From contig LBOW01000011.1 in assembly GCA_000989765.1 (NCBI GenBank), forward strand, positions 1 to 54,830: a DNA stretch of 54,830 nucleotides. The letters run 5' to 3'. The notes below the pieces were generated by a model, which was not told the DNA's origin, made no database searches, and was given only the letters and a program-made list of their open reading frames with translations. Position 1 is the stretch's first letter, and every line of letters begins with the position of its first letter. The translations under genes and the position numbers were made by a program. Source of the DNA: Candidatus Woesebacteria bacterium GW2011_GWB1_33_22 (GTDB lineage Bacteria > Patescibacteriota > Microgenomatia > UBA8517). Shown one piece after another: positions 39 to 49,981 of this stretch.

Positions 39-98
39 ACTAACTCCTGTTGAAATTGACATTATTCAATGTCGAATAAGTATCTGATCCTACACAAT
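1..98. repeat. Left arm of a perfect 98-bp inverted repeat (partner 54732..54829)
   Basis: Reverse complement of 1..98 equals 54732..54829 at every base. Identity stops at 99/54731. Confidence 0.95.
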
Positions 99-116
99 AA
101 CTGATTTTGAACACGA

Positions 117-1040
117 TTAACTGACGCTTGTCCCTGTATAGATTTTAGGTTCACTCCATGATGGCGGTATATCTTGTTGTATCTCTTCTTCTGCCTCTTC
201 AGGTGTCATTGAAGAAACATTTTCACTTTGTTTTAACTGTGGTTTTAAAGTACTTAATATTTGTACTTGGTTAAACGGTTTATTTGGTATAGCTCCTTGT
301 GGAAAAGAATTTGGTTGCACCTTAGTCATTCTAAGTCCGCCTAGTTTTAATAACTCTGTAAAAGTTTCAAATGTATTAACTGATACGTCAGTACTTTGAA
401 AGTTTTTACTCTCACTCTCAATCCCTGCTAATAAATTTGTAGCAATATCAGGATCAATTATGAAACCTCCTTCTTTAATTAAACCAGCAACAATTTCTGA
501 AGTCGAACTAGCTGCTTTTGCAAAAGAAAGTACTTGTAAATCTTTATTTTCAATTTCTAACAGTTTTGTGCCTAAATGAATTATTTTAGAACCTACAAAA
601 TCTGGATATTTTAATACTGGAAAATCAGATTCATCTGTACCACCAATTAAAATTATAAAGTCAGAGCCACCTCCAGCATAACTTACTTCAATTTGATCCT
701 GGTTTGGTGATTTAAACCCTGCTTTCGGGCTAACAGTTAGCTTAAACTGTCCATTCTCAATATCATAACTTACTTTATCTACATCAACGGCATTATAATT
801 AATAAACTTAATTGTCAAATTTTTATCTCCCAAATTAGAAGTTACTTTATCTACCCCAATTAGTCTTGAAAACTCGGTAGTCATCGGAGTAGAACAAGAG
901 ATAGTTACATTTTTACCTGAACTCAAGAGAGACAGATAAAGTGAAAGTCCGGCTGCAACCTTATCCAAATTTGGCTTTTGTGTGAGAAGAATTAAAACTT
1001 CCAAAGAAGAATCAATTAATGCTTTAAATGAGTTATCCAT
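117..1040 (-). CDS. DHH/DHHA1-like (NrnA-like) protein with unrecognisable catalytic motifs
   Basis: 307 aa directly downstream of infB, where nrnA-type genes often sit. The N-terminus (LILLTQKPNLDKVAAGLSLYLSL) resembles the DHH motif I/II region, but I cannot find the DHH and GGGH signatures. Confidence 0.35.
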   Translation of the reverse strand: MDNSFKALIDSSLEVLILLTQKPNLDKVAAGLSLYLSLLSSGKNVTISCSTPMTTEFSRLIGVDKVTSNLGDKNLTIKFINYNAVDVDKVSYDIENGQFKLTVSPKAGFKSPNQDQIEVSYAGGGSDFIILIGGTDESDFPVLKYPDFVGSKIIHLGTKLLEIENKDLQVLSFAKAASSTSEIVAGLIKEGGFIIDPDIATNLLAGIESESKNFQSTDVSVNTFETFTELLKLGGLRMTKVQPNSFPQGAIPNKPFNQVQILSTLKPQLKQSENVSSMTPEEAEEEIQQDIPPSWSEPKIYTGTSVS

Positions 1041-2439
1041 TTTTGCCTACGGCAATAATAACATCTCCTATTTGAAAATCAAGTTGAGGATGAAAAAATA
1101 TTCCAAATTCTTCTCCTTGAGAAACTCCTGATACTTCTTGTTTTTGTTTTTTAATTGAAGTTGCTGTAATTTTACCCAATTCAACATCCCCTCTCATTAG
1201 TCTTAAATCTGATGTCTTTTCAATCCTGCCCATTAAAACCTTTGATCCTGCAACTCTTTTTCCATTAAAAGGAAAACTTGTAACAATTTCAGCCTTACCT
1301 AAAGTTTCCCTTAAACCACTTCTAACTATTTCATCTAATCTTTGTAATAACTCATAGATGATATCAAATCTTTCAACCTTTACTTTATCCATCTCGGCTA
1401 ATTTTTTGACACTTCCAGGTATTTTACTTTCAAACACAAAAATCAAAGCATTGTTTGCTTTAGCGTTTAAAACATCTGATTCTGTAACATCTCCCACACT
1501 ACTTTCTAAAACTGCAAATTCTTGAGGAATGGAAGCAACTAATGCTTCTAATGACCCTGCACTATTGGCTTTTAAATAAAGTGGAATCTTAGTTTTGTCA
1601 ATCTGACGTTTTGGTGTAGAATCCATTGTCTCACTTGATACTTGATACTTGATACTTGATACTTGGCCTGTAACTAAAGCCCCAACTTCAGGTAAACTTT
1701 CAAACCCTAAAACTTTAGCGGGTTCTCCAGGTAAAATCTCCTTAACGGGCTTATTTTGATAATCAAAAAGTCCTTTTACTTTCCCTTTTGCCTTTTCACT
1801 AAATATTTCATCACCAATTTTTAATTTTCCGTTTCTTACGACTAAAGACACCATATTTCCACCTTTATCTTTATTTGTCTCAATGACAAAAGCTTCAAGA
1901 TCTGCATCAGAATCTGCTTCAATATTGTTCACATCTGCAAGTAGAGATATTAAATCTAATAAATCAGTAAGTTTTTCTTTTTTCTTAGCAGATACTCCAA
2001 TGTATGGAGTTTGTCCACCACGTCCTTCAAAATAAATTCCTTCTTTTTCAAGACCAGAAAGCGTCTCATCAACTGAAGCTGCTGGTAAATCAGTTTTCGT
2101 AATAACCACTATAAATGGGGTGCCTGCAGTATTAATGTGGGCAATTGCCTCTTTTGATTGAGGCTTAACTCCGTCTGAACCATCAACAATCAACAGGGCA
2201 ATGTCAGCAAGTTTGGACCCACGAGCTCTCATGCCTGAAAAAAGGGCATGGCCGGGAGTGTCTATGAAGGTGATCCTGTGACCATCTTTTGTGTTTACAA
2301 TAGAGGCTCCTATTGATTGGGTAATACCTCCCGCCTCTCCTGAAGTTACATTGGAGTTTCTTAAAGCATCAAGAAGTGAAGTCTTACCATGATCTACATG
2401 CCCAAGAACTGTTACTATTGGTTGTCTTTTTATTTTCAT
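1033..2439 (-). CDS. infB: Translation initiation factor IF-2 (short form starting at the G domain)
   Basis: G motifs GHVDHGKT, DTPGH and TKTD, followed by the beta-barrel and C-terminal domains. Sits in nusA-infB order. Confidence 0.92.
   Translation of the reverse strand: MKIKRQPIVTVLGHVDHGKTSLLDALRNSNVTSGEAGGITQSIGASIVNTKDGHRITFIDTPGHALFSGMRARGSKLADIALLIVDGSDGVKPQSKEAIAHINTAGTPFIVVITKTDLPAASVDETLSGLEKEGIYFEGRGGQTPYIGVSAKKKEKLTDLLDLISLLADVNNIEADSDADLEAFVIETNKDKGGNMVSLVVRNGKLKIGDEIFSEKAKGKVKGLFDYQNKPVKEILPGEPAKVLGFESLPEVGALVTGQVSSIKYQVSSETMDSTPKRQIDKTKIPLYLKANSAGSLEALVASIPQEFAVLESSVGDVTESDVLNAKANNALIFVFESKIPGSVKKLAEMDKVKVERFDIIYELLQRLDEIVRSGLRETLGKAEIVTSFPFNGKRVAGSKVLMGRIEKTSDLRLMRGDVELGKITATSIKKQKQEVSGVSQGEEFGIFFHPQLDFQIGDVIIAVGKNG
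1634..1666. repeat. Perfect heptamer array (CTTGATA) x4.7 inside infB
   Basis: cttgata repeated at 1634, 1641, 1648 and 1655, then cttgg. Encodes QVSSIKYQVSS on the minus strand. Confidence 0.95.
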
Positions 2440-5548: not shown

Positions 5549-7485
5549 TCAACAACCTCCCCTTCTTCGACCCCTTCGGCTGGCTCAGGGCGAGCTTTTG
5601 CATCTGATTTTTTGTCTTTTGTTTCATTTGTCTTTTCCTCAGGCTTAGCTTCTGCTTCATTTTCATTTTTGACATTTGAATTTTGATTTTGGTTTCCATA
5701 CATTGCCTGTCCTACTTCAGACAAAGTTTCTGAAAGTTCTTTAGTTTTTGCCTCTAAATCTTCTTTTGAACCACTTTCAAGTATATCTTTTAAGGCTTTA
5801 ACTTTTTCTTCTACTTTTGCTTTTACATCTGCAGGAGCCTTATCGCCTGCGTCTTTCAAAGCTTTCTCTGCGGTTACAATCATTGCATCAGCATTGTTTT
5901 TAGATTTAATTATTTCTGCTTTCTTTTCGTCTTCTGCTTTATTCTTCTCCGCATCTTCCTGCGCCTTTTTAACTTCCTCATCTGTTAAGCCAACAGAACC
6001 TGTAATTTTAATGTTTTGAGTTTTTCCAGTTGCTTTGTCTTTTGCAGTAACGGTTAAAATGCCATTGGCATCCAAATCAAACATGACTTCAATTTGGGGA
6101 ACACCTCTTGGGGCAGGAGGAATGCCATCCAATACAAATCTTCCAAGAGCTTTATTGTCATTACTTAAAGGCCTTTCGCCTTGAGTAATATGAATTTCAA
6201 CTTGTGTCTGATTATCGGCAGCAGTTGAAAACACTTCTGTCTTACTTGTAGGTACTGTTGTATTTCTTGGAATCATTGGTGTAGCTACCCCTCCCATTGT
6301 TTCAATTGCCAAGGTCAGAGGTGTTACATCCAAAAGTAAAATATCTTTAACATCTCCCGCCAAAACTCCTGCTTGAATAGCAGCACCTACTGCAACAACC
6401 TCGTCAGGATTTACAGACTTATTTGGTTCTTTGCCAAAAAATTTCTTAACCTCTTCAACAACTTTTGGCATTCTGGTCATGCCACCAACCATAATAACCT
6501 CGTTAATGTCCCCAGCTTTTAATCCTGCATCTTTAAGACAAGCTTCCACCGGTTTAATTGTCTTTTGAATAAGTTCATCTACAATTGACTCTAATTTTGC
6601 TCTTGTTATCTTCATCGTCAAGTGAATCGGTTGGCCGTCTTTTTGAGTTATATAAGGTTGGTTTATTTCAACTTCATCTGCTGCTGATAATTCTATCTTT
6701 GCTTTTTCTGCAGCATCACGAACGCGCTGTAATGCCTGTTTATCAAGCCTTAAATCCATTGAATTTTCTTTTTTGAATTCTTCTGCTATAAAATCAACTA
6801 TCTTTTCGTCAAAATCATCTCCTCCAAGGTGTGTATCTCCGTTTGTTGCCTTGACTTCAAATACCCCGTCTCCTAATTCCAAAATCGAAATATCAAATGT
6901 TCCACCACCTAGGTCATAAACAGCAATTTTCTCAGCTTTTTTCTTGTCTAATCCATAAGCCAAAGCTGCGGCGGTTGGTTCATTAATTATTCTTTCAACC
7001 TTTAGCCCTGCAATTTCTCCTGCTTGCTTGGTTGCCTGTCTTTGAGAATCATCAAAATAGGCAGGGACTGTAATAACTGCTCTATCTACAGATTCTCCCA
7101 AATACTTTTCCGCATCTTTTTTAAGTTTCATTAAAACGCGAGCGCTAATTTCTTGAGGGGTATAAGTTTTACCATCAATTTCAACATCAGCCATTCCCGA
7201 CTTTCCTGAAACAATCTTGTAGGAAACCATTTTTTGAGTTCTAGTTACTTCTTTATCTTCAAACCTTCTACCCATTAACCTTTTAACTGAAGATATTGTA
7301 TTTACTGCATTTAAAATCATCTGTCTTTTAGCCACATCTCCAACAAGGTTTTTGGCAAGTTCTACAACCGATGGGGTTGTATTTTTACCAGTATCAGAGG
7401 CACTAATAACCTTGGGGCTTCCGCCTTCCATTACTGCTACACAGCTATTTGTTGTTCCTAAATCAATACCGATTATTTTTGACAT
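5545..7485 (-). CDS. dnaK: Molecular chaperone DnaK (Hsp70)
   Basis: [22 protein letters not shown] and the rest of the Hsp70 architecture are present across the full length. Confidence 0.98.
5566..5594. repeat. GC-rich mini-element related to the 20-mer at 34500/50582
   Basis: ttcgaccccttcggctggctcagggcgag shares TTCGAC and GCTCAGGGCRAG with the 20-mer. Encodes ARPEPAEGV in the DnaK tail. Confidence 0.6.
5658..5692. repeat. Degenerate period-7 array in the dnaK 3' tail
   Basis: cattttc atttttg acatttg aattttg attttgg. Encodes [12 protein letters not shown]. Confidence 0.6.
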
Positions 7486-7486
7486 A

Positions 7487-7939
7487 TTATTTTGTTTTCG
7501 CTACTTTCACTCTTGCATGTCTTACTACTGTTCCATCAGAATATTTCCATCCTGGCATAACTACTTCTGAAACATTATTATTATCTTTTTCTTCTAAAGT
7601 TTCAATGGTCTCTATAACTTCACTTGTTGCTTCATCAAATTTATCCCCTACATTAATTTTTATTTCTTCAAATCCTTCCTCATGGGCCAATGTTTCAAGT
7701 TGCCCAATAATCATTGCTATCCCAGAATCTTTAATATGATTCTGTGCACTTTTTAAATTATCAATAATTGGTAATATCTTTGACATGAATGAAACACTTG
7801 CGAGTTTAAACATTTCAACTCTTTCCTCATCAGTTCTTTTTTGTAAATTTGCATAATCAGCCATTGCTCTTGCTAATTGTTCTTTCAGAACAATTTGGCC
7901 GTTAGCTATTGGCTGTTGGCTATTAGCTTTCTTTTTCAT
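7487..7939 (-). CDS. grpE: Nucleotide exchange factor GrpE (short, 150 aa)
   Basis: Lies between hrcA and dnaK. Coiled-coil N-terminal half and a GrpE-like C-terminus ([20 protein letters not shown]). Confidence 0.85.
7901..7928. repeat. Degenerate heptamer array in grpE (same family as 32291..32325)
   Basis: gttagct attggct gttggct attagct. Encodes ANSQQPIAN. Confidence 0.85.
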
Positions 7940-8698: not shown

Positions 8699-9097
8699 CT
8701 ATTTTGAATATAATTTAATTTCTGGAATCCTAGAAAAGTGTTTAATATTTTTTGTCATTAATACCAAATTGTTTACGATTGCGGTTGCACCAATAATTAG
8801 ATCAAAATCTTCAAGTCTTGATCCTTTTTTCTCTAATTCTATTTTTAAATCAATAAATTTGCCTGCGATTTTTAAATCAATCTCTAGTATTTTTATATTT
8901 AAGTCAATAATAAAATTAGTAAATTGTTTTGTTGCCTTAATCGAATTTTTTAATTTTCTTATCCCATAAATTATTTCAGACCAATTAATAATACTTATAA
9001 ATAAATCTTCTTTTGATTTACTTATAATTGTAGAAAGATAATCATCTTTATTATTTAAATGATTAATGATTACATCACTATCTAAAAGTAATCCCAT
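8699..9097 (-). CDS. vapC: PIN-domain toxin (VapC-like)
   Basis: 132 aa with an LLLDSDVIINHL N-terminus. Lies immediately downstream of a small antitoxin gene. Confidence 0.7.
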   Translation of the reverse strand: MGLLLDSDVIINHLNNKDDYLSTIISKSKEDLFISIINWSEIIYGIRKLKNSIKATKQFTNFIIDLNIKILEIDLKIAGKFIDLKIELEKKGSRLEDFDLIIGATAIVNNLVLMTKNIKHFSRIPEIKLYSK

Positions 9098-9098
9098 T

Positions 9099-9371
9099 TT
9101 AGTTTATTATTTTAAAATTTTTTCTAAAAGATTTAGTTGATTTTACAATTTCTTTGCTGATATCAACATTCCAAACACCCGCATATTTATCCATTATTTC
9201 AGACCTAGATAGTGTTTTTTTTATTGGATTTGTTATTTTGATCATTTTTATCATAGGTTTACCCATTTTTTCCACAACTATTTCATAATTATTGTAATAA
9301 GTTAAATTAATAAGTTCACTAAAGTTCTTTCTAGCCTCAAATACAGACATTGTTTTTAACATTTTTAACAT
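9099..9371 (-). CDS. Phd/YefM-type antitoxin (start uncertain: 9371, 9362 or 9350)
   Basis: MSVFEARKNFSELI is a Phd/YefM-like N-terminus. The longer track ORF (to 9398) would translate the TGTACA operator repeats. Confidence 0.6.
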   Translation of the reverse strand: MLKMLKTMSVFEARKNFSELINLTYYNNYEIVVEKMGKPMIKMIKITNPIKKTLSRSEIMDKYAGVWNVDISKEIVKSTKSFRKNFKIIN

Positions 9372-9372
9372 A

Positions 9373-9409
9373 CTGTACAGATTGTACAGCCTGTACATGT
9401 CGGTGTCAA
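9373..9409 (-). promoter_or_regulatory. TA promoter with three TGTACA palindromes
   Basis: Minus strand TTGACA-17 nt-TACAAT. TGTACA occurs at 9374, 9383 and 9392 (9-bp phasing). Confidence 0.6.
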
Positions 9410-9419
9410 GAGAGAGATT

Positions 9420-12101
9420 TTACCAACACCACCAAAGGAAACAATGTTCTCGCCCCGCGGAGCCTTGGCGAAGTGGGGTTGGGGAAGGAATAAATGTAGG
9501 CAATGGTGTTACTAATGCTCCAAGAACAGGAGAAGGTGTGGAAATAATTGGCTTAGTAATTTTTAAATTGAACTCTGGTAATTCTGTATAGTCATTGTTT
9601 TTATTGGTGGCAAAAATGTTTACATTGTATGTCCCCACCGATAACTTGTCTGTAAAACTAACTTTAAATCTTGATGTAGAATCAACTGTAGCTTCCTTAG
9701 AAACAAGGGTTATGTTGTTTTGAGAAAGTTGTACTGTTACTTTAGAACCTACTGTTGAAATTCCTGTAAATGTTGGTATTTGGTTAACTACTTTCTTGGT
9801 TAAAAGAACCAAAGGAAACCACTCACCTGAGAAGTTGGCTGTGTGGGTGTTGATTCTTAAAATTTTAGGATCAGAATCAGTACTGTTTCCATTTTGATCA
9901 AAAGCGCGAACCTTCCATTTGTATGCTCCACCTGCAAGTTTATCTATCTCCCTCTTGGCATACACTGATATTTCATTGCCTGAATAACTTACAAACCTTT
10001 CTGTTTGATCAAGTGTTGTTCCACTAACACCTTCTACGATGCTTGTTATGTATGGATAATAATCTTTACCCTCAGGTTTAATAAATATCTCATATGAAGA
10101 TATGCCAGCTGTAGCATCAGAAGACTTTGAAAAAGTAAAAGCAGGTAAACTATCAGTTGTAAATATATTATCCCCCCCACTACTATTAGACTTGGCAGGA
10201 TTAATAATATCTGACCTTGTGGCATCATACTCAAATATCTTAATATCGTCTATGTACCAACCATCCCTACGATTATTAGTATTTGCATATGGGTAAAGAG
10301 AACTTAGTAAAAACCTTAATTTTATATGTTGGGTTGCGTAGACACTTAGATCGATTTCCTCTTTTGTCCAATTTACCAATTTTCCGCTATAAACAGGACT
10401 TGTTCCATATAGATAAGCCTCACCGCCATTTGTATAATTGCCAGGAAGAGAAGTCCAATTAGAACCGTTATCGATTGAGATTTGAATTTCAGCAATATCA
10501 AAATAACTGTAAAGGTCATATTTTGTCCAAAAAGAAAGTTTTGGATTTGTGTAACCAGAAAGACTGATATTGTTCGTTGTGGTCAGAGACGAGTTAAGCG
10601 GATGGTCATAGTCGCCCAAAATACTATCCGTACATGAACTGGATGATGAATGGTAGGCAGAAGTTGTTGTCTGCCAAACAATTGAGGTAACCGATGAAGT
10701 TGTCCAGTTACTCAAATTGTCGCAGGAGTCTGAAAATATTATTTCAGGTGTAGCCACATAGTAAGTAATGCTTTTGGTTGAGAGTGTTGAGTCTCCTGAT
10801 TTAATTGTTAAAGTAAAGTCCATTTGTGTACCAAGTGGAGCCGTTTCAGATACAGTAAATGAGAAAGAGTCGTTAACTGTTTGACTGGTTTGACTATCAA
10901 GAGCACTGATTGTTTCACTACCATCATTAATGGTTACATATGAACTTGTGGTAGTTAATGTTGCAACCACAGAATCCATATTTCCTCTTCCTTTGTTTTT
11001 GGCAACAATTGACATTAATACTGTTTCTCCAGGATCCATGTATTCTTGGTTAGTTGAATATGAAGAGATGTCTGTGTAGCCCCCTGCTACAAAAGCAATA
11101 TATTTATTTGGGAAAAGATTTTCAGAAACTACAACGTCTATACGTGACTGTATTGGCCAAAAACTGGAATCAGCCCCCACTTCAGGTAGAAAAGAAAAAA
11201 TATTGCCGTTGTTGGCAATAACATCGCCATCATACATATAGTCAAGAACATCGCCCCGAATAGCGTATGTCAAGTTTTGAATAGTTAATCCTGTTACATA
11301 GTTATTCCCAGAAACCATATCGATAGCCCATTCTTCAAAAATGTTCCCATCAGAGGTTTGAGATTGCGAAGCTGTATAAGGGTAGGGCATGTCACCTCCG
11401 TAAGTATGGTAGTTAAAAGCTGTTTTGATTTGGTGGGAGGAGAGAAAATCACGTATTGCTTGTGTTTCTGGTTCAGAAAAAGGGGCTGTTCCACGGTAAT
11501 CACTCGCGCTGGTGGTTGTGCTTGATCCGCTATTATTGTAGTTCCAGTAGGCCTGTGGTCCAAAGTTGCGGTTGAGGTCTACTCCGTAAGTTCCATTACC
11601 ATTGTTTTTTCTATTCTTTCTCCAATTCCCTCCCCCTGAGGGGTTTGTTGTTTGGTTGTAGTAGTAGCCATCAGGATTAACAACAGGCAGAAAGTACATT
11701 TCTCTGTTATCAACCAAATATTTTGCAGTTGAATCGGTATTATAGTTTTCAAGAAGGTAATACATGAAGTAAATTGTTACCTCCATTCCCATTGGTTCTC
11801 TTGCGTGAGTTAGAGCGTTGTAAAATACCTCTGGCTCACTTTCATCACTTCCCGGGTTATCTGAAATCTTAACTATATAAATAGGTCTTCCTTCTACAGT
11901 TGTTCCTATCTGTTCCTTAGCTGTAATGAGGTTAGGATACTTAGTATGCATATTATCCAGCTGGTCATACACTTCACTTAATGTGTAATATCCACCCATG
12001 GAACCATATCCAAAATCTGTAGCTAGTGCAGAAGAAGGAAACAACAACAAAAAAAGAAGAAATATAGGCAGGAAAGAAAAAACTATTTTTATAATTTTCA
12101 T
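9420..12101 (-). CDS. Secreted M14 zinc carboxypeptidase with large C-terminal beta-rich domains
   Basis: Signal peptide, HAREPMG (HxxE), VVNPDGY, WRKNRK and GVDLNRNF. About 550 aa of Ser/Thr-rich beta-domain sequence follow. Confidence 0.85.
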   Translation of the reverse strand: MKIIKIVFSFLPIFLLFLLLFPSSALATDFGYGSMGGYYTLSEVYDQLDNMHTKYPNLITAKEQIGTTVEGRPIYIVKISDNPGSDESEPEVFYNALTHAREPMGMEVTIYFMYYLLENYNTDSTAKYLVDNREMYFLPVVNPDGYYYNQTTNPSGGGNWRKNRKNNGNGTYGVDLNRNFGPQAYWNYNNSGSSTTTSASDYRGTAPFSEPETQAIRDFLSSHQIKTAFNYHTYGGDMPYPYTASQSQTSDGNIFEEWAIDMVSGNNYVTGLTIQNLTYAIRGDVLDYMYDGDVIANNGNIFSFLPEVGADSSFWPIQSRIDVVVSENLFPNKYIAFVAGGYTDISSYSTNQEYMDPGETVLMSIVAKNKGRGNMDSVVATLTTTSSYVTINDGSETISALDSQTSQTVNDSFSFTVSETAPLGTQMDFTLTIKSGDSTLSTKSITYYVATPEIIFSDSCDNLSNWTTSSVTSIVWQTTTSAYHSSSSSCTDSILGDYDHPLNSSLTTTNNISLSGYTNPKLSFWTKYDLYSYFDIAEIQISIDNGSNWTSLPGNYTNGGEAYLYGTSPVYSGKLVNWTKEEIDLSVYATQHIKLRFLLSSLYPYANTNNRRDGWYIDDIKIFEYDATRSDIINPAKSNSSGGDNIFTTDSLPAFTFSKSSDATAGISSYEIFIKPEGKDYYPYITSIVEGVSGTTLDQTERFVSYSGNEISVYAKREIDKLAGGAYKWKVRAFDQNGNSTDSDPKILRINTHTANFSGEWFPLVLLTKKVVNQIPTFTGISTVGSKVTVQLSQNNITLVSKEATVDSTSRFKVSFTDKLSVGTYNVNIFATNKNNDYTELPEFNLKITKPIISTPSPVLGALVTPLPTFIPSPTPLRQGSAGREHCFLWWCW
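9452..9480. repeat. GC-rich mini-element, copy 1 (partner 37069..37098)
   Basis: gccccgcggagc-cttg-gcgaagtggggtt, compared with gccccgcgaagc-ttcat-gcgaagtggggtt. Confidence 0.85.
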
Positions 12102-14535: not shown

Positions 14536-14640
14536 TAATTGATTTTGAAGTCAAAAGCCTTTTGCATTGATTTCCAACTGTAAATAGTTATTCTATTTGT
14601 GTCCAAATTGTCAATCCCATTGCCAACTTGTCCTATTTAA

Positions 14641-17180: not shown

Positions 17181-17843
17181 ATGGAAACTGGATGGAAAAG
17201 AAATTATTCAAGATATAAAGAATTTTTCTTAAATGTTTGGCGTTTGTATAATACCAAACCTAGTCTAAAAATTTACTTAGAACTCATTCTTTCAATTACT
17301 ACAGTTGCTATTTTTGGCGTTTTCGCACTTAAACCAACAATTTTAACTATTGTTGACTTAAATAAAGATATTACAAATAAAGAAGAGGCAATATCCAAAC
17401 TTAAACAAAAAATCAATAATCTACAGATAGCTAACGCAACGTTACAAACAGAAAGTTCAAGACTTCACATAATCGACGAGGCAGTACCAAATACTGTCTC
17501 AGCTGAAACATTAATTAAACAGATTGAAATTCTAGCAGCTCAAAATTCGGTTTCAATACTTTCATTCTCCATCTCAGATGTCAATTTGGTAGGTAAAAAA
17601 GAAGTAAAGAAAAAGTCGGGTGACCTTGTCAGTTTAGCTGAAGGCAGTAATGAACTTCAGTTCACTTTTTCAAGCCACGGATCATATCAAAATCTATTAA
17701 ACCTAATAAAAAACGTTGAAAACTTAAGACGACCTGTAAAGATTGATTCTTTTTTACTTAATGCAAATGTTTCAGAAATAGGAAAAGTTTTGACCTTAAC
17801 AGTATCGGGTAGAGTACCATTTATTATATATGAAGAAAAATAA
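17181..17843 (+). CDS. PilO-like membrane protein
   Basis: N-terminal TM, coiled coil, then an alpha/beta domain. Adjacent to the PilN-like gene. Confidence 0.4.
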   Translation: METGWKRNYSRYKEFFLNVWRLYNTKPSLKIYLELILSITTVAIFGVFALKPTILTIVDLNKDITNKEEAISKLKQKINNLQIANATLQTESSRLHIIDEAVPNTVSAETLIKQIEILAAQNSVSILSFSISDVNLVGKKEVKKKSGDLVSLAEGSNELQFTFSSHGSYQNLLNLIKNVENLRRPVKIDSFLLNANVSEIGKVLTLTVSGRVPFIIYEEK

Positions 17844-23076: not shown

Positions 23077-23085
23077 ACAAGATTG

Positions 23086-23150
23086 TCAGTGGACTCAGTA
23101 CACTCAGCAAATCAGCAACTTCAGTGAATCGGTAAAACAAAACTGATAAT
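23086..23150. repeat. Left flanking array of TCAG-containing 7-9-mers
   Basis: gtcagtg gactcag tacactcag caaatcag caacttcag tgaatcgg ... aactgataat. Confidence 0.75.
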
Positions 23151-23520: not shown

Positions 23521-23580
23521 CAGGTTGAATCACTGATAAACTGACCCACTGAGTTCACTGAGTACACCGATTATCTGAAG
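23521..23580. repeat. Right flanking array carrying inverted copies of the left-flank motifs
   Basis: cactgagttcactgagt is the inverse of actcagtacactcag (left flank). accgattatctgaag is the inverse of cttcagtgaatcggt (left flank). Confidence 0.75.
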
Positions 23581-39352: not shown

Positions 39353-42166
39353 CTATTGAGTAGTAGTAGGATGGCAAAACATTGAGTATTCGCATTTTCC
39401 CTGACAGAAGAAGTTGTTATTACATTTGAAATCACTTTCTTCAATTTCTTTTTTAATTTCAAATATTTCTTTTTTAACGCTGTCAAGCGCTTTTCTTGTT
39501 CGTTTGGTTGTTATTTTTTCCTGAGTATCTAAATAGTAAAGTGATAGTTTAATGTCTTCAGGTTTTACTTTGTATAAATTTGAAATGGCCAGGCAATAAA
39601 AAGAAAGTTGCATATCTTTATCAACTTCTTTTTGTGTTGGGATATTAGCTCCTGTTTTGTAGTCAATTATTTCTAATCTTCCGTTTCCAAGATCATCTAG
39701 CCTATCGATAACTCCCCCAATCTTTAAAGTCTTATCGACTGGGATCGTAAACTTTTGTTCAAGAGATACAGTTTTTATTTTTGGGTCGTAAGCATTTTTC
39801 AAAAAACCCAATAAATAACTTTCTCCTTTTTTATAAAATTCCAGTTTATGCTTTTTATTAATATATCCCTCAGCAATAAAATTATTCTTGTATATCTCAA
39901 ATATATCTTTCTTCGTCTCGAAATAATCTTTTAAAGTATTATGAATTGACACTCCAAAGGAGATAGAGGCAGACGGTGGGGTAGGAAGTTTATAAATATA
40001 TTTTAATTTATAGTGCATTGGACAAGTTTTGAATGTTTCGATTTGAGAAACTGACAAATAGTCAATTTTTAGTGATTGGTGATTAGTGACTGGTGACTCG
40101 TGTTTTGGAATTTGTAAATTAAAAATTGATTGAAAATTGTTAATTGGTAATTGCAAATTAGGAAGCTTTTCTAAAGCTTCTAACACAAACGTTGATATTT
40201 TCTTTTTTCTCTTTCCATCTCCGTAAAAATCAGCTGCAGTAAAATAAAGTCTTTCTTTTGCTCTGGTCATGCCAACATAGAAAAGTCTTCTTTCTTCCTG
40301 TAAATGAAAATCTCCTGTTGGTAGTGTTTCTTTAATCAGGTCGTCAGGTATTGGAATCTGTTCGCGCCGTTCTCGTGATGGAAATCTTTCACTTACTAAA
40401 TTGACCAAGAATACAACTGGAAATTCTAAACCTTTGGAGCTATGAACTGTTAAAATATTAATGGTATTATTTTCCTGCCAATCGCCATCAGTAACATTTG
40501 GCGACTCGCCTACTTCTGTTAGTAGATCTATATAGTCTACCAATGCAAAAACGCTTAAATCTTTATTTGATTCTTCAAAAGATTTTATCTTTTCAAAAAA
40601 TTTGGCAATATTTTTTGCTTTGACATCTTCACTATTTTCCAAGATTTTTTGATAAATTCCCACTTCACTTATATAGTCGTATAAAATTTGTCCCGCCGTT
40701 TCTTTGTTTATTAACTTAAAGTGTCTGTCGATTATTTTTAGTAATTTAACAACTTTCTTGTCGTCACTTTCCATAATTACCTCAAAAATAGATGAACTGC
40801 TTCTTTTTGCTTTAGTCGCAATTTTTATAAGTTCTAGGCTCGAGATATTAAATATACTTGATGACAATAACCTATACAAACTAGCCGAATCTTCTGGATT
40901 ATATAATACTTTCAGATAACAAATTAGATCAATTATTTCTTCTTTTTCAAAAAGTTTTGATGGGCCTAAAAACTGATGCGGAATACCTTGTCTTTCAAAT
41001 TCCCTTATAAAAGCGTCAGTATGGTTGTTGGCTCTTACCAATATCGCAATATCACTATAATTATATTTGTCTTTACTGATTAATTGGGTTACTAAATTAC
41101 AGATTTTTTCTGCTTCCTCTTGTCCTGATTTTGTATGTATAAACTTGATATCTGTTAACTGTTTACTATTTACCGCCTTAAGTTTTTTAGATATTCCCAA
41201 CCGGTACTCTAAAGTATCTGGGTCATTATGTTTAATTAACTTATAAGCGCCATCAAGAATTGTTTGAGTTGATCTGTAGTTTTGATTCAAGGTAATAATT
41301 TTAACTTTAGGATACGTCTTTTTGAATTGGATAATATTACTTATGGCAGCTCCCCTAAATTTATAGATTGATTGGTTATCGTCCCCTACAACTGAGATAT
41401 TTCCATATTTTCGAGCAAGTAAGTTAATCAATTCGTTTTGTCCATAGTTGGTGTCTTGAAATTCATCGACAAGAATATATTTAAACTTTTGCTCATAAAT
41501 TTTTAAAATATTGGGGCGTTTATTAAATAATTCTAAAGTCTTTGTTATCAAATCTCCAAAATCAAATTTGCCTTCTTTTATTTTTAAGTAATCATATGTT
41601 TTATAAGCACTTGCCAGTTCTTTAATTTTTGTTATCTCTAGTGTTTCTTCATTTGTATATTTTTTTGCATATTTCAAATATTCTTCTGGTCTTACTACCT
41701 CATCCTGAAGTCTACTAAAATGCTGTAACATTCCCTCAATAAACTTATTAGGGTTTCCAAGTGGTCTAAAATAATCAAGCTTAAAATCAAACAGGTTTTT
41801 CTTTATTAGGTCAATACTTTCAGCAGTTGTCATTAATTTAAAGTTGGAAGGCAAACCAATATGGATTGCATTATCACGAAGCACGCGATCGCAAAAGGCA
41901 TGAAAGGTAGAAATCCACATTTCACCATAACCTAAGGGCATTGCCATATCCACCCTCTCCTCCATTTCGGCTGCCGCCTTTTCAGTAAAAGTTAAAGCTA
42001 AAATTTCTTCAGGTAAAACTCGCTCTTTTGTTATTAAATATTTAATTCTTTCAGTTATTACAGTAGTTTTTCCTGTCCCCGCCCCGGCGATTATTAAAAG
42101 CGGGCCTTTGTCGTGTTTTACGGCCTGCAACTGTTCCTTGTTTAGTTTTTTTGGAGTACCTTTCAC
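39353..42166 (-). CDS. UvrD-type helicase fused to a Cas4/AddB-like PD-(D/E)XK nuclease with a Cys cluster
   Basis: AGAGTGKT, DEFQDTN, QNYRS and VGMTRAK, then CPMHYKLKY ... IDRLD ... IIDYKTG ... C-x5-C-x3-C-x6-C at the C-terminus. Confidence 0.85.
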   Translation of the reverse strand: MKGTPKKLNKEQLQAVKHDKGPLLIIAGAGTGKTTVITERIKYLITKERVLPEEILALTFTEKAAAEMEERVDMAMPLGYGEMWISTFHAFCDRVLRDNAIHIGLPSNFKLMTTAESIDLIKKNLFDFKLDYFRPLGNPNKFIEGMLQHFSRLQDEVVRPEEYLKYAKKYTNEETLEITKIKELASAYKTYDYLKIKEGKFDFGDLITKTLELFNKRPNILKIYEQKFKYILVDEFQDTNYGQNELINLLARKYGNISVVGDDNQSIYKFRGAAISNIIQFKKTYPKVKIITLNQNYRSTQTILDGAYKLIKHNDPDTLEYRLGISKKLKAVNSKQLTDIKFIHTKSGQEEAEKICNLVTQLISKDKYNYSDIAILVRANNHTDAFIREFERQGIPHQFLGPSKLFEKEEIIDLICYLKVLYNPEDSASLYRLLSSSIFNISSLELIKIATKAKRSSSSIFEVIMESDDKKVVKLLKIIDRHFKLINKETAGQILYDYISEVGIYQKILENSEDVKAKNIAKFFEKIKSFEESNKDLSVFALVDYIDLLTEVGESPNVTDGDWQENNTINILTVHSSKGLEFPVVFLVNLVSERFPSRERREQIPIPDDLIKETLPTGDFHLQEERRLFYVGMTRAKERLYFTAADFYGDGKRKKKISTFVLEALEKLPNLQLPINNFQSIFNLQIPKHESPVTNHQSLKIDYLSVSQIETFKTCPMHYKLKYIYKLPTPPSASISFGVSIHNTLKDYFETKKDIFEIYKNNFIAEGYINKKHKLEFYKKGESYLLGFLKNAYDPKIKTVSLEQKFTIPVDKTLKIGGVIDRLDDLGNGRLEIIDYKTGANIPTQKEVDKDMQLSFYCLAISNLYKVKPEDIKLSLYYLDTQEKITTKRTRKALDSVKKEIFEIKKEIEESDFKCNNNFFCQGKCEYSMFCHPTTTQ
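40071..40160. repeat. Long composite period-7 array (GTGAYT type, then CAATTW type)
   Basis: agtgatt ggtgatt agtgact ggtgact cgtgttt ... taattgg taattgc aaattag. Encodes LQLPINNFQSIFNLQIPKHESPVTNHQSL. Confidence 0.8.
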
Positions 42167-46242: not shown

Positions 46243-47604
46243 ATGGGTAGAAAATTTTATATAACTTGTGCTATTCCCTATGTTAATGCTAAACCTCATG
46301 TTGGGCATGCATTGGAATTTGTACAAGGTGATGTTATTGCCAGATATCACAAATTATTGGGTGAGGATGTAATTTTGCTTTCTGGTGGAGATGAGAATGC
46401 GCTAAAAAATGTACAGGCTGCAGAAAAAGCAAATGAGCCAATTCAGGAATTTGTTGATAAAAACAATAAGTTATTTGTCGAACTTACAAAAAACTTAAAC
46501 TGTGAGTTTGATATTTGGCAAAAAGGCAGTGATAAAGAGAAACATTTCAAATCCTCACAGAAACTTTGGGAACTTTGTAAAGATGATATCTATCAAAAAG
46601 AATACGAAGGCTTGTACTGTGTTGGTTGTGAAGCTTTTTATTCTCCAGAAGATTTAAACGAAAACGGAGAATGTTTTGAACATCCAGGCAAAAAACTAGA
46701 ATCAGTAAAGGAAAAAAATTATTTCTTTAAATTATCAAAATATCAAAAGGATTTAATAGATTTAATAAGTAAAGACAAATTAAAAATCTACCCCATTGAG
46801 CGACGGTCTAATGAAAGAGCTAAAAACTGGGGTGTGCCTGTCCCCAATGATGACTCACAAAAGATTTATGTTTGGTTTGATGCTTTAAACATCTATCAAT
46901 CAGGTATTGGTTTTGGCTGGGATGAGGAAAAATATAGAAAATATTGGCCCGCAGACCTTCATATAATTGGTAAAGGGATAACTCGATTCCATGCAGTTTA
47001 CTGGCCTGCATTTTTACTTTCAGCTGGACTTAAAATACCTAAGGCTTTGTTTGTTCATGGATATTTTACCGTAAACGGACAAAAAATGAGTAAAACTTTA
47101 GGAAATGTCATTGATCCAAATGAAATAATTGAAAAGTATGGAGCAGATGCATTGAGATACTATTTTTTAGCAAAATTTCAACCTTTTACAGACGGAGACT
47201 TCTCAGAAAGTAAATTAAAAGATGTCTATAATGCAGATCTTGCAAACGGTTTGGGTAATCTTGTTTCCCGTGTTGCAAAACTTTGCGAAAACTCAAAATT
47301 TGAATTTAAACTTTCCAGTCCTGAAATTTACCAACAAGTTTCAAACTCAATAAAAGAGTTTCGATTTGACAATGCCCTCAAATTTATTTGGGAAAAAATT
47401 ACTTTAGTAGACAAAGCGGTTAATAAATCAGAGCCATGGAAATTAAGTGGCGAGATTTTAAAAGAGACGTTGCAAAAATATTTATGTGAAATTAGAACAA
47501 TTGCTTTAAACCTAAAGCCTTTTTTACCTAATACTTCTGAAAAAATATTGGCAAATATAGGAAGTAACAGACCAATTTCTGAAGTCTTATTTCCTAGATT
47601 ATGA
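46243..47604 (+). CDS. metG: Methionyl-tRNA synthetase (compact, 453 aa)
   Basis: HVGH (HIGH), CVGCE...C.EHPG knuckle, YVWFDAL and KMSKT. Confidence 0.88.
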   Translation: MGRKFYITCAIPYVNAKPHVGHALEFVQGDVIARYHKLLGEDVILLSGGDENALKNVQAAEKANEPIQEFVDKNNKLFVELTKNLNCEFDIWQKGSDKEKHFKSSQKLWELCKDDIYQKEYEGLYCVGCEAFYSPEDLNENGECFEHPGKKLESVKEKNYFFKLSKYQKDLIDLISKDKLKIYPIERRSNERAKNWGVPVPNDDSQKIYVWFDALNIYQSGIGFGWDEEKYRKYWPADLHIIGKGITRFHAVYWPAFLLSAGLKIPKALFVHGYFTVNGQKMSKTLGNVIDPNEIIEKYGADALRYYFLAKFQPFTDGDFSESKLKDVYNADLANGLGNLVSRVAKLCENSKFEFKLSSPEIYQQVSNSIKEFRFDNALKFIWEKITLVDKAVNKSEPWKLSGEILKETLQKYLCEIRTIALNLKPFLPNTSEKILANIGSNRPISEVLFPRL

Positions 47605-49014
47605 GGAAGTTTATTATTAGACATGAAAAACAGGTCTTAAGGGCTTTTGAAATTTTACCTGGTTTTTTTTCTTGGAATATGATCTTGTTTCCCTACTGGG
47701 GAATATTTGTGTTTCCTAATTTTATTGCCTACTTTATCCTTCTTTTTAATGTTTACTGGTTTTATCAATCTTTTTTAGTTGCTATTACTTCAATTGTTTC
47801 TCATCTTAAAATACAAGCAGCTATTAATTACGACTGGATGGCTGACTTAAAGACTTTTAAAGATTTTAAAGATGTTAATCACTTAATAATTATTCCCACT
47901 TTTAAAGAACCATTACATATTTTAGAAAGAACCATTAACTCTTTAGTTGGTCAAACCTTTCCAACTAAACAAATTGCAGTTATTTTAGCAATGGAAGAAA
48001 AAGAATTGCCTGAGGACAGAAATTCTAAATTTGAAATTTTAAATTCTAAATTTGAGACACGCTGCAGTGTGGTTTAAAAGAAACTTCATTGAAAAGGACC
48101 AGTATGACATTAACTATTTGACTGTCACAAGTTGTGATGCTGATCATAAATATCATCCCAACCACTTTGCAAATTTAGCTTTTAAATTCTTGGATAACCC
48201 CAAAAGATATCGTACTTTCTGGCAACCGGCAGTTATGTTTTACAACAATATTTGGGAAATACCGGCAATTACAAGAGTTCCAAACACCTTAGGTTCAATC
48301 TGGAATTTATCGCAACTCCCTCGTAAAGATAGGCTTATAAACGCTCAAAATTATTCACTTTCTTTTAAGCTCTTAGACGAAGTTGATTATTGGGATGCAG
48401 ATAAAATTCCTGAAGATTGGGGAATATTTTTCAAAGCCTATTACAAAGTTAACGGTGGTCTTGAGGTAGAACCAGTTTACCTTCCACTGCATGCTGACGC
48501 GGCTCAGTCTTCTTCATTTTGGAAAACATTAAAAAATCAGTATGAACAATACAGAAGATGGGCTTGGGGTGCATCTGATGATTCTTGGATCATTAGAAAT
48601 TATTTATTGGACACTAAAATCCCCTTCTGGGACAAGACCACAAGATTAACCCATGTACTTTGGTCTCATTTTATGTGGCCAGTTAATTGGTTTTTAATTA
48701 CAATAGGATTAACCCTTCCTACACTCTTAAACCCTGCTTTTGGAAGGACAACGTTAGGGTTCATGGTTCCTAAACTTTCTTCCTACATCTTGACAGCTTC
48801 ACTTGTATTTCTATTATCACTCGTTTTTATAGACAATATTTATAAACCCAAAAGACCTGAAAATGTTTCTGTTTGGAAATCAATCCTTTTTCCCTTTGAA
48901 TTTATCTTAATGCCAATTGCTGGTTTTTTCTTTGCAGCGCTCCCAGGATTGGATGCACACACCCGCCTGATGCTTGGGAAATATATCCAATATAAAGTAA
49001 CGGAGAAAGTGTAG
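47601..49014 (+). pseudogene. Membrane GT2 processive-type glycosyltransferase split into two ORFs (47601..48077, 48052..49014)
   Basis: N-terminal TMs plus IIIPTFKEP in ORF 1. CDADH, EDWG and QYRRWAWG (QxxRW) plus C-terminal TMs in ORF 2. The frames change inside a period-7 array. Confidence 0.7.
48021..48055. repeat. Five heptamers (35 bp) at the GT2 frame break
   Basis: aattcta aatttga aatttta aattcta aatttga. Confidence 0.9.
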
Positions 49015-49055
49015 CTAGAAACTAGAATCTAGTAACTAGTATCTAGCTTCTATAA
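49014..49055. repeat. CTAG-type heptamer array between and overlapping two convergent stop codons
   Basis: gctagaa actagaa tctagta actagta tctagct tctataa. The outer units can pair (GCTAGA/TCTAGC). Confidence 0.85.
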
Positions 49056-49981
49056 AAATCAATTGTTCTCATAAGGCCGTCTGTAAGTTTTACTTTTGGT
49101 TCCCAATTAAGAAAGTCTCTAGCTTTTGAGATATCAGGGCATCGTTGCATTGGATCATCTGGTCTAAAAGTTCCTGAGTATATTACTTGTGATTTAGAAT
49201 TTGTTAAATCAACAATCTTTGTAGCAAGATCTGAAATTTTGTATTCTTCGGGATTTCCTAAATTAAATACTTCGCCTTTAGTACTTTCAACAAACATTGC
49301 TTTTTTGATTCCTTCAACCAGGTCAGTAACATAACAAAACGACCTGGTTTGACTTCCGTCTCCATCAATTTTTATTGTCTCTCCATGAAGAGCCCAATTT
49401 ATGAAGTTACTAACCACCCTTCCATCGTCTTTCTGCATATTAGGTCCATAAGTATTGAAAATTCTAATTATTCTGGCATCTATCCCATATTTGTTCAAAA
49501 AAACATAGGTCGTAGCTTCTGCAAATCTTTTGCTCTCGTCGTAGCAGGACCTGGGGCCAAAACTATTGGCATTTCCCCAATAGGTTTCTTTTTGTGGATG
49601 CTTTTCTGGATCCCCATATATTTCAGAGGTTGAAGCAATTAAAACTTTTGCCTTAGTATTTTTGGCTAAATTTAAAATATTAACTGTTCCTTGGGAATTT
49701 ACTAAAAGTGTTTCCTCAGGAAGATTTTGATAATCAATTGGGGAAGCTGGAGAAGCTAGATGAAACACATAGCGTATAGCGTCTAGCGAATAGCGTATAG
49801 GTTGAACAATGTCGGCTTCAATAAACTCGAAATTAGAATTACTTAATAAACCTTCGATATTTTGTTTATTTCCTGTGATTAGGTTATCAAGACAAATAAT
49901 TTTATATCCATCATCAAGGAGCGATTTGCACAGATGTGATCCAATGAATCCTGCGCCCCCTGTAACCAAACAGTTTTGCAT
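49043..49981 (-). CDS. UDP-glucuronate decarboxylase (UDP-xylose synthase)-type SDR
   Basis: VTGGAGFIGSH, SPASP, YDESKR and NTYGP, with overall UXS-like spacing. Confidence 0.8.
   Translation of the reverse strand: MQNCLVTGGAGFIGSHLCKSLLDDGYKIICLDNLITGNKQNIEGLLSNSNFEFIEADIVQPIRYSLDAIRYVFHLASPASPIDYQNLPEETLLVNSQGTVNILNLAKNTKAKVLIASTSEIYGDPEKHPQKETYWGNANSFGPRSCYDESKRFAEATTYVFLNKYGIDARIIRIFNTYGPNMQKDDGRVVSNFINWALHGETIKIDGDGSQTRSFCYVTDLVEGIKKAMFVESTKGEVFNLGNPEEYKISDLATKIVDLTNSKSQVIYSGTFRPDDPMQRCPDISKARDFLNWEPKVKLTDGLMRTIDFYRS
49768..49802. repeat. Degenerate heptamer array (TAGCG type) in the UXS gene
   Basis: catagcg tatagcg tctagcg aatagcg tataggt. Encodes PIRYSLDAIRYV. Confidence 0.85.

Follow-up and report, generated by a model that had tools for sequence, protein, structure and literature searches.

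Heptanucleotide repeats have been described as the commonest class of long simple sequence repeats (LSSRs) in many prokaryotes, and polymerase slippage in a register of ~7 nt has been proposed as their source (Mrázek, Guo & Shah 2007, in the summaries of that work given within PMC4679880 and PMC4692102). Why heptanucleotides should be favoured among the long repeats of scattered bacterial lineages is a question that has been standing since 2007. Here we report on a set of heptamer arrays in a 54,830-nt contig of Candidatus Woesebacteria bacterium GW2011_GWB1_33_22 (LBOW01000011.1, positions 1 to 54,830; the whole stretch is referred to below as the window), which belongs to the candidate phyla radiation (CPR). 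Almost all of these arrays lie in frame inside protein-coding genes, including those for the essential proteins IF-2, DnaK and GrpE, and they look like a coding-region form of the known heptanucleotide-repeat bias, with no new kind of genetic element involved.

Several other described systems are relevant for comparison. The short tandemly repeated repetitive (STRR) units CCCCAGT, TTGGTCA and CAACAGT of the cyanobacteria Calothrix and Nostoc are said to have been reported by Mazel and co-workers in 1990, and Rickettsia palindromic elements (RPEs), inserted in frame into genes, reportedly go back to work of Ogata and co-workers in 2000. Repeats of GGGGAYT and GGGAATC are found in Nostoc and Xanthomonas, where most Xanthomonas sets consist of about four units (PMC4692102). 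TAACTGA repeats occur in marine Beggiatoaceae, cyanobacteria and a few Bacteroidetes, and in reverse orientation they are translated as LSVISYQ at the beginning or end of proteins or between their modules, for example in MurG (MacGregor 2015, PMC4679880). Heptameric repeats have also been studied in Haemophilus influenzae phase variation, as mentioned in PMC12721329. A literature search found no paper on heptamer arrays in CPR bacteria. An earlier reading of the window made from its letters alone (the sequence-only reading) had been aware of no such in-frame arrays described from the housekeeping genes of a CPR-like genome; the search agrees with this for the CPR, whereas outside it the repeats of MacGregor (2015) are a precedent. 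A search for the unit sequences of STRRs brought up nothing but unrelated papers.

Period-7 arrays in the window

Arrays were sought with Tandem Repeats Finder (TRF), run on the 54.8-kb window, and with a lag-match scan that applies one fixed criterion to all periods (at least 16 of 21 matches at lag p, with low-complexity sequence removed), for which 17/21 served as a stricter threshold. At p = 7 the scan returned 14 regions in the window, against 0.18 in composition-preserving (block) shuffles, and at the stricter threshold 9 regions stood against 0.01 in dinucleotide-preserving shuffles. Lags of 4, 5, 8, 10, 11 and 13 gave 0-1 regions each, and the only other enriched periods were 14, which is a multiple of 7, and multiples of 3, which are expected in coding DNA. 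The shuffles and the neighbouring periods together show that the excess is real and specific to period 7. Shuffling had been named beforehand in the sequence-only reading as a control that could overturn it, and shuffled sequence yielded far fewer period-7 arrays than the window.

TRF placed period-7 arrays at 1633, 5659, 7895, 14379, 21751, 23673, 25488, 32291, 40072, 48019, 49011 and 49769. The 15 loci listed from the sequence alone largely coincide with these: 12 of them hold (1634, 7901, 14381, 21751, 23674, 25484, 32291, 37744, 40071, 48021, 49014 and 49768), the one at 5658 is weak, and those at 23086 and 23521 are not heptameric, since they consist of TCAGT/ACTGA motifs at 8-9-nt spacing. 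Three weaker candidates fell away altogether. At 90-140 there are two copies of TAACTGA 20 nt apart, on the inner edge of the terminal inverted repeat of the contig; at 24801 the repeat is TAATT, three times over, with a period of 5; and nothing was found at 36581. The arrays have 4-6 units, where up to 13 had been claimed (4-13), and the number lying inside open reading frames (ORFs), given as 11, is 14 of 15. The coding density of the window is 95.5%, so this share is proportional to it, and the arrays are neither excluded from genes nor enriched in them.

Host genes were assigned with Pfam. They encode IF-2, DnaK, GrpE, an FG-GAP protein, a PMT-family glycosyltransferase (two arrays), FemAB, ComM/YifB, a UvrD-PD-(D/E)XK helicase-nuclease (2-3 arrays), a GT2 glycosyltransferase and a UXS-like epimerase. 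Translation and Pfam bear out the peptides that had been quoted for the arrays, as well as the essential hosts IF-2, DnaK and GrpE, in which the arrays are read through. Two features of LSSRs are thus found in the window, namely head-to-tail copies of a 5-11-nt unit (12-14 arrays, by TRF and the lag-7 scan) and lengths above what composition leads one to expect (14 vs 0.18 and 9 vs 0.01, as above), whereas the third, the confinement of non-triplet units largely to non-coding DNA, is not, with 14 of the 15 arrays in ORFs.

Distribution among relatives

DnaK and IF-2 both place the window in Candidatus Woesebacteria (Microgenomates, CPR), in agreement with the CPR-like genome that had been supposed from the sequence. 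Its IF-2 is identical to proteins of Woesebacteria assemblies from the Rifle aquifer and is present on 24 contigs. The relatives compared were a sister genome with ~80% nucleotide identity to the window, covered by three loci (L001, L107 and L114), and further loci from DnaK and IF-2 scans.

Under the same lag-match criterion as in the window, which has 14 period-7 arrays in 54.8 kb (2.55 per 10 kb), there are 38 in 1.08 Mb of Woesebacteria-like loci (0.35 per 10 kb), 10 in 0.27 Mb of other CPR loci (0.38 per 10 kb) and a single one in 0.35 Mb of non-CPR loci (0.03 per 10 kb). In this sample, the period-7 excess is restricted to CPR loci. Long open frames make up 94% of the sequence of the relatives and contain 28 of their 49 arrays, with 21 in the other ~6%, an intergenic enrichment that is expected if selection removes most coding arrays. 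Coding arrays occur at ~2.5 per 10 kb in the window and at ~0.2 in the relatives, and the rate in the window is near the intergenic rate.

One relative (L042, DnaK 81%) has six period-8 arrays (52-87, 456-484, 7159-7185, 11717-11750, 13247-13280 and 13308-13341) and no period-7 array in 20 kb. The arrays at 13247 (AGAGTAGA) and 13308 (CTTCCACT) are near-inverse complements of each other. This locus was considered as evidence of a lineage-specific ruler and was set aside, as its arrays are mostly intergenic and partly inverted pairs, and may be a different thing.

Units, stop codons and palindromic cores

The window has at least five families of units. Written on the + strand, these are TAGC/AGCT (7894, 25484, 32289 and 49768), CTAG (23674 and 49011), GTGA/CAGT (21751, 37744 and 40069), AATT (14379, 40126, 48019 and 5658) and TTGA (1633), a diversity that speaks against one binding factor of given sequence specificity. 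For several arrays the TRF score is higher at period 14 or 21, which indicates that blocks of several units have been duplicated. In 12 of the 14 coding arrays, stops occur in the unused frames of the coding strand, the used frame being open, and the one intergenic array (CTAG, 49011) has stops in all six frames. This distribution of stops implies that the orientation of an array, as well as part of the variation among its units, is imposed by a stop filter.

Each array had been described from the sequence as keeping a core with 2-3 variable positions. Columns are indeed slightly concentrated (284 invariant columns over 63 arrays, against 264.7 under random decay with the same detection rule; z = 4.8, about +0.3 per array), only modestly beyond random decay. 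A conserved core with variable positions was therefore discarded as a special signature, the small excess being explained by higher-order (14-/21-nt) duplication together with the stop filter.

Self-complementary tetramers are more frequent in the units than expected. Specifically, they are found in 42 of 62 arrays, against 32.9 expected from permutation of the units (p = 0.003; 61-62 non-redundant arrays), and the tetramers most enriched are AATT (22 vs 9.0), AGCT (7 vs 1.3) and CTAG (5 vs 1.2), which are also enriched in comparison with natural genomic 10-mers. Nothing similar was seen at periods 6, 8 and 9. Slippage stabilised by hairpins was tried as an explanation and rejected, because the folding energies of the single-stranded DNA (ssDNA) are no better than those of shuffles, except in the intergenic array at 49011.

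Gain, retention and replacement

Set against their relatives, the arrays form three classes, namely those gained, those conserved and those that are replaced by a different array at the same site. The first class, gained in the lineage of the window, comprises the FemAB array (+24 nt), the array at 49011 (+29 nt) and the perfect IF-2 array. Conserved in the sister genome are those at 21751, 25484, 40071, 40126 (diverged), 41143 and 48021. In the third class, relatives have another array in the same place, as in the IF-2 linker, the epimerase loop, the C-terminus of the PMT protein, the N-terminus of GrpE and the ComM linker. The lineage-specific insertions proposed in the sequence-only reading are thus true of the first class only, that is, of FemAB, the intergenic array and the IF-2 linker; a model of clean insertion is ruled out by orthologue alignments for at least six arrays, which are already present at the orthologous sister sites, and others have been exchanged for a different array. 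The same reading had named the presence of the array peptides in distant phyla as refuting it, and they were not found there; they are nevertheless shared well beyond the species.

An apparent IF-2 allele shorter by 7 aa (P0122/L113) was discarded, since the Logan contig behind it is a chimera in which the window genome gives way to the sister genome. This contig (SRR2090173_84523, 2 kb) is 100% identical to the window until just before the IF-2 array and from there on 100% identical to the sister locus L001. Most likely, two Woesebacteria that occur together were joined in assembly, real recombination being the alternative.

Origin of the arrays

We lean towards an origin of the arrays in a mutational bias toward heptanucleotide tandem duplication, of the LSSR and STRR-like kind, and not in a function tied to their sequence, with the outcome filtered by reading frame, stop codons and the tolerance of the proteins. 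Short tandem duplication in a 7-nt register would create and remodel heptamer arrays in this Woesebacteria lineage, and units made of a 4-nt palindrome plus 3 nt would be favoured. Slippage or template switching may be the generating step, and a property of the replisome or of repair could set the register. Inside genes, the survivors would be those arrays that preserve the reading frame; no stop could be allowed in the frame that is read, which would fix the orientation of the array and force some of the unit variants, and the array would have to land where the protein tolerates it, for instance between domains, at a terminus, in a surface loop or in a generic membrane helix. After fixation, two courses would be open to an array: (i) decay by point mutation under ordinary protein constraint, as we suppose for 21751, 25484, 40071 and 48021, or (ii) at unconstrained sites, overwriting by arrays with other units, which would fit the IF-2, ComM, GrpE and epimerase sites.

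Selection on codons or amino acids cannot be held responsible for the 7-nt period, because each unit is read in a different frame. Since the period is, moreover, found alike in coding and intergenic arrays and, in the sample, confined to CPR loci, a mutational bias is the most economical explanation. The recurrent birth of arrays with unrelated units at permissive sites (the IF-2 linker, the epimerase loop and the ComM linker) supports it further.

There are, however, several observations that weigh against such a bias. Copy-number variation is absent from the 24 assemblies with identical IF-2, which may be one clonal population, and the lengths of GrpE and DnaK are unchanged among them; members of the 90% IF-2 cluster show no array variation, and a metagenome scan for copy-number variants returned nothing closer than 80%. 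At array sites, the window and the sister differ in length by +24, -21, -3, about -6, +15 to +18 and +29 nt, values that are mostly not multiples of 7. Proto-arrays, in the form of exact two-copy heptamer duplications, number 84 in comparison with 78.6 in shuffles, which is no excess, and simple stepwise slippage fails to account for an essential gene that gains ~three units at once. The bias does not explain the enrichment of palindromic cores, and the predicted hairpins are weak; nor does it account for why the density of coding arrays in the window is ~ten-fold that of its relatives. Finally, units and peptides recur at unrelated loci and in unrelated genomes, which could mean templated copying.

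The main rival, possible if unlikely, is such a templated or copy-paste origin, in which the arrays would be written into permissive sites from others of their family, through ectopic gene conversion, a template switch from one dispersed array to another, or some unknown element. Between the GrpE and FemAB arrays, 21 of 23 nt agree, among them a change that stop avoidance does not require, and both arrays differ from the sister; the window-specific arrays at 23674 and 49011 share CTAGAAACTAGAAT; and AGTCACC, read as SHQSPVT, occurs in at least five proteins of several genomes (UvrD linker, SecA, a methyltransferase, IF-2 linkers and the ComM linker). No local sequence in the sister is an obvious seed of the FemAB insert, and the lack of two-copy proto-arrays points the same way. 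On the other hand, the window and the syntenic loci showed neither conserved flanks nor target-site duplications, and no donor locus, transposase or reverse transcriptase came to light in them; and a unit shared by 2 of 15 arrays is not very improbable given that few units are favoured. The substitutions that GrpE and FemAB share are, moreover, all C-to-T except where a stop would arise, so that AT-biased mutation and the stop filter could have converged on them. The three recent insertions showed no flanks in common. A reverse transcriptase of the kind found in diversity-generating retroelements was absent from the Pfam-annotated genes of the window and the syntenic loci, not every small ORF of the window having been scanned; an Avd-like PF05635 gene is present at 23158-23520.

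A more far-reaching proposal, which we regard as rather doubtful, is that Woesebacteria, and perhaps the CPR widely, have a dedicated and heritable 'ruler' process that writes ~three or more heptamers in one step, with a preference for units of a 4-nt palindrome plus 3 nt, possibly from other arrays as a template, and that it acts in this lineage on coding DNA at nearly the intergenic rate. If this were true, the linkers, loops and termini of essential proteins would owe most of their sequence novelty to the process, which would work by the in-frame rewriting of cassettes and not by ordinary slippage.

Functional cis-elements are an improbable explanation. The arrays would then be binding sites at the DNA or RNA level (for a heptamer-binding OB-fold or cold-shock protein), regulators of the kind put forward for cyanobacterial and Beggiatoa repeats, or terminator hairpins, for which it may be said that several of them are conserved between species, the one at 21751 as a conserved island in a divergent gene, that palindromic tetramer cores are strongly enriched, as expected for the sites of dimeric proteins, and that the array at 49011 folds well (z = -3.0) between convergent genes. 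Regulatory roles have also been proposed for heptamer repeats elsewhere (PMC4679880; bioRxiv 10.1101/2022.06.06.494920). Yet many unrelated units coexist in one genome, their orientation is dictated by stop avoidance, and the sequence has been replaced wholesale between sister species at five sites. Most arrays fold no better than shuffles, and protein-level constraint explains the arrays that are retained (the GT2 and PMT peptides are conserved).

Phase variation at contingency loci, in which the gain and loss of units would switch genes such as those for GT2, PMT, FemAB, the epimerase and the FG-GAP protein, is very unlikely. About half of the array hosts are cell-envelope or glycan genes, and the GT2 gene is broken immediately after its array. 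But the lesion there is a 77-nt deletion and a frameshift by unit slippage had to be rejected, as removal of one unit fails to restore the frame and leaves a stop; the arrays are mostly interrupted and short, which suppresses slippage; IF-2, DnaK and GrpE are essential; and the 24 assemblies hold no length variants. Chance, composition or misassembly can be dismissed: although the genome has 33% G+C and is AT-rich with low-complexity sequence, and some of the listed loci are weak (5658, the tail of 14381 and 41143), shuffles give 0.01-0.2 arrays where 9-14 are observed, the neighbouring periods are empty, the counts by locus group differ, and the arrays are identical across independent assemblies and kept in other genomes.

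If the bias is indeed mutational, a neutral process at the DNA level can dominate the evolution of linkers and termini even in IF-2, DnaK, GrpE and ComM of a small-genome CPR bacterium, and alignment-based inference of CPR-specific inserts should allow for it. The genome is also an unusually clean natural experiment, with a dozen arrays under a strict frame filter, sister genomes in which gain, retention and replacement can be seen, and a reproducible preference for palindromic cores. (CTAGNNN)n and (AGCTNNN)n are concrete substrates for biochemical slippage assays.

Arrays in translation, chaperone and repair genes

Surface loops had been suggested as the sites of the arrays. This holds in so far as linkers, tails and loops are where most of them were placed, and it does not for two arrays that sit in membrane segments of the PMT protein. 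The IF-2 array (1633-1667, minus strand) is the only perfect one in the window and is unique to this genome; its unit is ACTTGAT on the + strand, or ATCAAGT x4.7 on the coding strand, and it encodes GQVSSIKYQVSS. It corresponds to aa 258-269, between the G3/EF-G_D2 domain (EF-G_D2 ends at 254 in Pfam) and the IF-2 C1 domain (starting at 269), and aligns to the charged G3-C1 linker of Thermus IF2. The linker of the window protein is 5-6 aa longer than in ~25 relatives, and the linkers of relatives hold other heptamer arrays, namely AAATTTA (L096), CAATAAT (L087), ACAAATT (L084) and GGTGATA (L086). Elsewhere in the protein, 3 of 5 near-identical IF-2 sequences from other assemblies (P0242-P0244) are frameshifted or truncated in the A-rich KKQKQEV region, which is C-terminal (about aa 430-450 of the window IF-2, window about 1090-1150); this points to errors or variation of the homopolymer type there, the heptamer array being invariant meanwhile.

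The DnaK array (5658-5692, minus strand) is weak and degenerate, with CAAAATN on the coding strand, and lies in the disordered C-terminal tail, after the HSP70 domain. TRF finds 74% matches in it, and it remains below the threshold of the lag scan. The DnaK tail of L007 has a homologous stretch of period 7, which is absent from those of the closer relatives L001-L004. The GrpE array (7894-7928, minus strand; AGCTAAT/AGCCAAY on the coding strand) is in the N-terminal tail, before the Pfam GrpE domain. At this site the sister, which is 21 nt longer, has a different, T-rich array with a period of ~8.

ComM/YifB has a degenerate array at 37744-37776 (minus strand; coding strand NGTTCAC/AGTCCTC) that encodes HTVHSSQSSVH in the linker between the N-terminal ChlI and AAA+ domains assigned by Pfam, and a solved ComM structure (8rxd) has a gap of 4 residues at the site. 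This linker is hypervariable among homologues with 70-91% identity: its sequence in the sister is unrelated, and heptad peptides such as HTAHRSQITDH, LTNHQSQITNH and NGQQLIANNS are found in other homologues.

Two strong arrays of the UvrD-nuclease gene, both on the minus strand, lie between the UvrD_C and PDDEXK_1 (PD-(D/E)XK) domains assigned by Pfam. The first (40069-40103) reads AGTGATT GGTGATT AGTGACT GGTGACT, in period-14 order, encodes SPVTNHQSLK and is kept in the sister locus L107. The second (40126-40160; ATTGNNA, encoding PNLQLPINNFQSI), which was absent from the list made from the sequence alone, is matched in L107 by a diverged ATTG/TTGG array with a period of 7-8. A third, weak stretch with CTGTTAA-like units (41143-41170, minus strand), likewise missing from that list, is inside the UvrD_C domain and nearly identical in L107; its heptamer periodicity is possibly due to chance. 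In a locus of another Woesebacterium (L021), arrays of the GGTGACT family are found at 14575-14617, at the C-terminus of SecA, and at 17751-17788, in a methyltransferase-like ORF, with the peptides APVTSHQPPIT and TSHQSPVTRH; unit and peptide are the same as in the UvrD-nuclease linker of the window.

Arrays in envelope, glycan and other genes

The FG-GAP array (14379-14412, minus strand) has the unit AGGAATT, decays into A-rich sequence and falls within the hydrophobic stretch at the N-terminus of an FG-GAP repeat protein. The gene belongs to a ~6-kb segment (8708-14650) without counterpart in the syntenic sister locus L001, which also holds genes for an M14 carboxypeptidase with MAM-like and Ig-like domains and for an unknown protein of 351 aa.

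In an ORF without Pfam domain (21660-22523), the array at 21751-21784 (plus strand; GTGATCA GTCAACA GTGATCA GTGAACA, near the N-terminus) has a higher order of period 14 and encodes GDQSTVISEQLD; 26 of 28 nt match at the orthologous sister site (L001 3389-3417), in poorly conserved surroundings.

The PMT gene has two arrays on the minus strand. The C-terminal one (23674-23703; GAAACTA, core CTAG, peptide ARFYILVSSF) lies in a membrane region, and the sister has a different array there, ACCAATA/ACCAATT, with a period of about 7.5. The other (25484-25518; CTATNNG on the coding strand, encoding PISYQLSAISLA) is in a membrane segment. It shows no change of length in comparison with orthologues, its peptide ISYQLSAIS aligning without gaps to their membrane segment, and the site is 7-periodic also in L003 (83% identical) and in the sister locus L114 (20939-20966). 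The FemAB array (32289-32323, plus strand; AGCTAAT AGCTAAT AGTCAAC AGCCAAT) is a clean insertion of 24 nt, or 8 codons, in comparison with L114.

The GT2 array (48019-48055, plus strand; AATTCTA AATTTGA AATTTTA x1.7, in exact period-21 order) encodes NSKFEILNSKF. It is 100% identical in L107, and the peptide is kept without gaps in GT2 homologues of 496 aa down to ~75% identity. The gene (47601-49014) consists of two overlapping ORFs, since 77 nt are missing right after the array in comparison with the sister and the 496-aa homologues; with ~25 codons plus 2 nt lost, it is a pseudogene or a split gene, and that 77 equals 11 x 7 may be a coincidence. A homologue that is 95% identical to the upstream ORF (P0004; window 47601-48077) could be assigned to no contig in a contig look-up.

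Between the convergent GT2 and epimerase genes lies the intergenic array (49011-49048, CTAGNNN x5), which provides the stop codons of both. It is an insertion of 29 nt in comparison with L107, where the two genes overlap by 4 nt. Its predicted ssDNA hairpin fold (-8.2 kcal/mol, z = -3.0) may have been co-opted as a terminator-like structure. The array of the epimerase, which is UDP-glucuronate-decarboxylase-like, follows at 49768-49801 (minus strand; ATAGCGT on the + strand, ACGCTAT on the coding strand, encoding PIRYSLDAIRYV), in a loop before the conserved hLASPA strand that is 3 aa longer than in human UXS1. Exactly there, L107 has an AGAATTA-type heptamer array over 38 nt, where ATAGCGT covers 35 nt in the window.

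Other repeats in the window

Positions 1-98 of the window are the exact reverse complement of 54732-54830 (the ends are offset by 1 nt). This ~98-nt terminal inverted repeat is probably an assembly artefact, and a tRNA-Cys gene is located just inside it (54639-54710). A perfect tandem duplication of 66 nt (19567-19698; 2.0 copies, 100% identity) in the ORF at 19285-20295 doubles a Cys-rich module (NCSVAEAILCNNEGKGCKDGKC) of a Gly/Ser-rich, secreted-looking protein that has two more similar modules. The ORF at 22534-23076, for a small Cys-rich protein with a membrane anchor, contains an (ACAGCA)n array at 22723-22819 with a period of 6/12 (16 copies matching at 68-73%), which is translated into a run rich in Thr, Ala and Ser. 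The loci listed at 23086 and 23521, with their TCAGT/ACTGA motifs, form the two halves (23080-23133 and 23527-23582) of an inverted repeat that is imperfect (28 nt with 79% complementarity, plus shorter pairs) and bracket the ORF at 23158-23520, whose product of 120 aa belongs to the PF05635 family of 23S rRNA intervening-sequence proteins (E = 1.7e-17). In the window, this gene is not inside an rRNA gene.

Comparison with known repeat systems

Like the contingency loci of host-adapted bacteria, the arrays are short tandem repeats in or near envelope genes, where a change in the number of units could cause a frameshift or affect expression. The repeats of contingency loci are long as well as perfect, and they are polymorphic, whereas the arrays of the window are short, interrupted, invariant in 24 assemblies and found in essential genes as well; no long, perfect and variable tract was seen, the sole perfect array being that of the essential IF-2 gene. 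With RPEs, as these are reportedly constituted, they share the tolerance of selfish or neutral DNA in frame at permissive positions of housekeeping genes. RPEs are said to be dispersed elements of 100-150 nt conserved over their full length, whereas the arrays have no conservation beyond the 7-nt unit. They share at most a unit family, and are thus unlike RPEs or miniature inverted-repeat transposable elements (MITEs).

A closer resemblance in coding sequence is offered by the TAACTGA repeats. There too the orientation in ORFs is set by stop codons, so that the arrays of the window behave like the in-ORF repeats of reverse orientation, and the unit behind the peptide ISYQLSAIS differs from theirs by one mismatch (TAGCTGA vs TAACTGA). 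In Beggiatoa, however, a single unit dominates and is mostly upstream of start codons, whereas the window has many units and almost all of its arrays are coding. Tandem TAACTGA is absent from the window, which has 14 scattered single copies of TAACTGA/TCAGTTA, and none of its arrays is in a 5′ leader, the sole intergenic one being located between convergent gene ends.

The likeness to cyanobacterial heptamer repeats seen in the sequence-only reading is apt, as STRRs also consist of tandem heptamers with a conserved core of 4-5 nt and variable remaining positions. Two stretches come within one mismatch of what we take to be STRR units, namely CAACAGT inside the array at 21751 and ACTGGTG, as against ACTGGGG, at 40085. 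STRRs, like the G-rich repeats, lie between genes, are in many cases long (up to 26 units) and consist of genome-specific dominant units, whereas the units of the window are AT-rich, with palindromic cores and without G-quadruplex potential. The host is not a cyanobacterium, no array has one of the units ascribed to STRRs as its consensus, and the arrays are neither intergenic nor long. In host, units and location, the arrays are therefore not members of the STRR or TAACTGA families.

This leaves the LSSRs as the general class. The CPR, or Patescibacteria, apparently lie outside the cited surveys of such repeats, going by the summaries of them. Non-triplet simple sequence repeats are normally excluded from coding DNA, whereas 14 of 15 arrays of the window are in genes, some of them essential, and the arrays are short (4-6 units), mostly degenerate and of several unit families, with no length polymorphism seen. 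In common with LSSRs, they consist of head-to-tail 7-nt units beyond what composition accounts for, favour period 7 over its neighbours and have a sporadic phylogenetic distribution, and slippage has been proposed for such repeats in the work so summarised. The arrays of related CPR loci, finally, are mostly intergenic, as they are in other bacteria.

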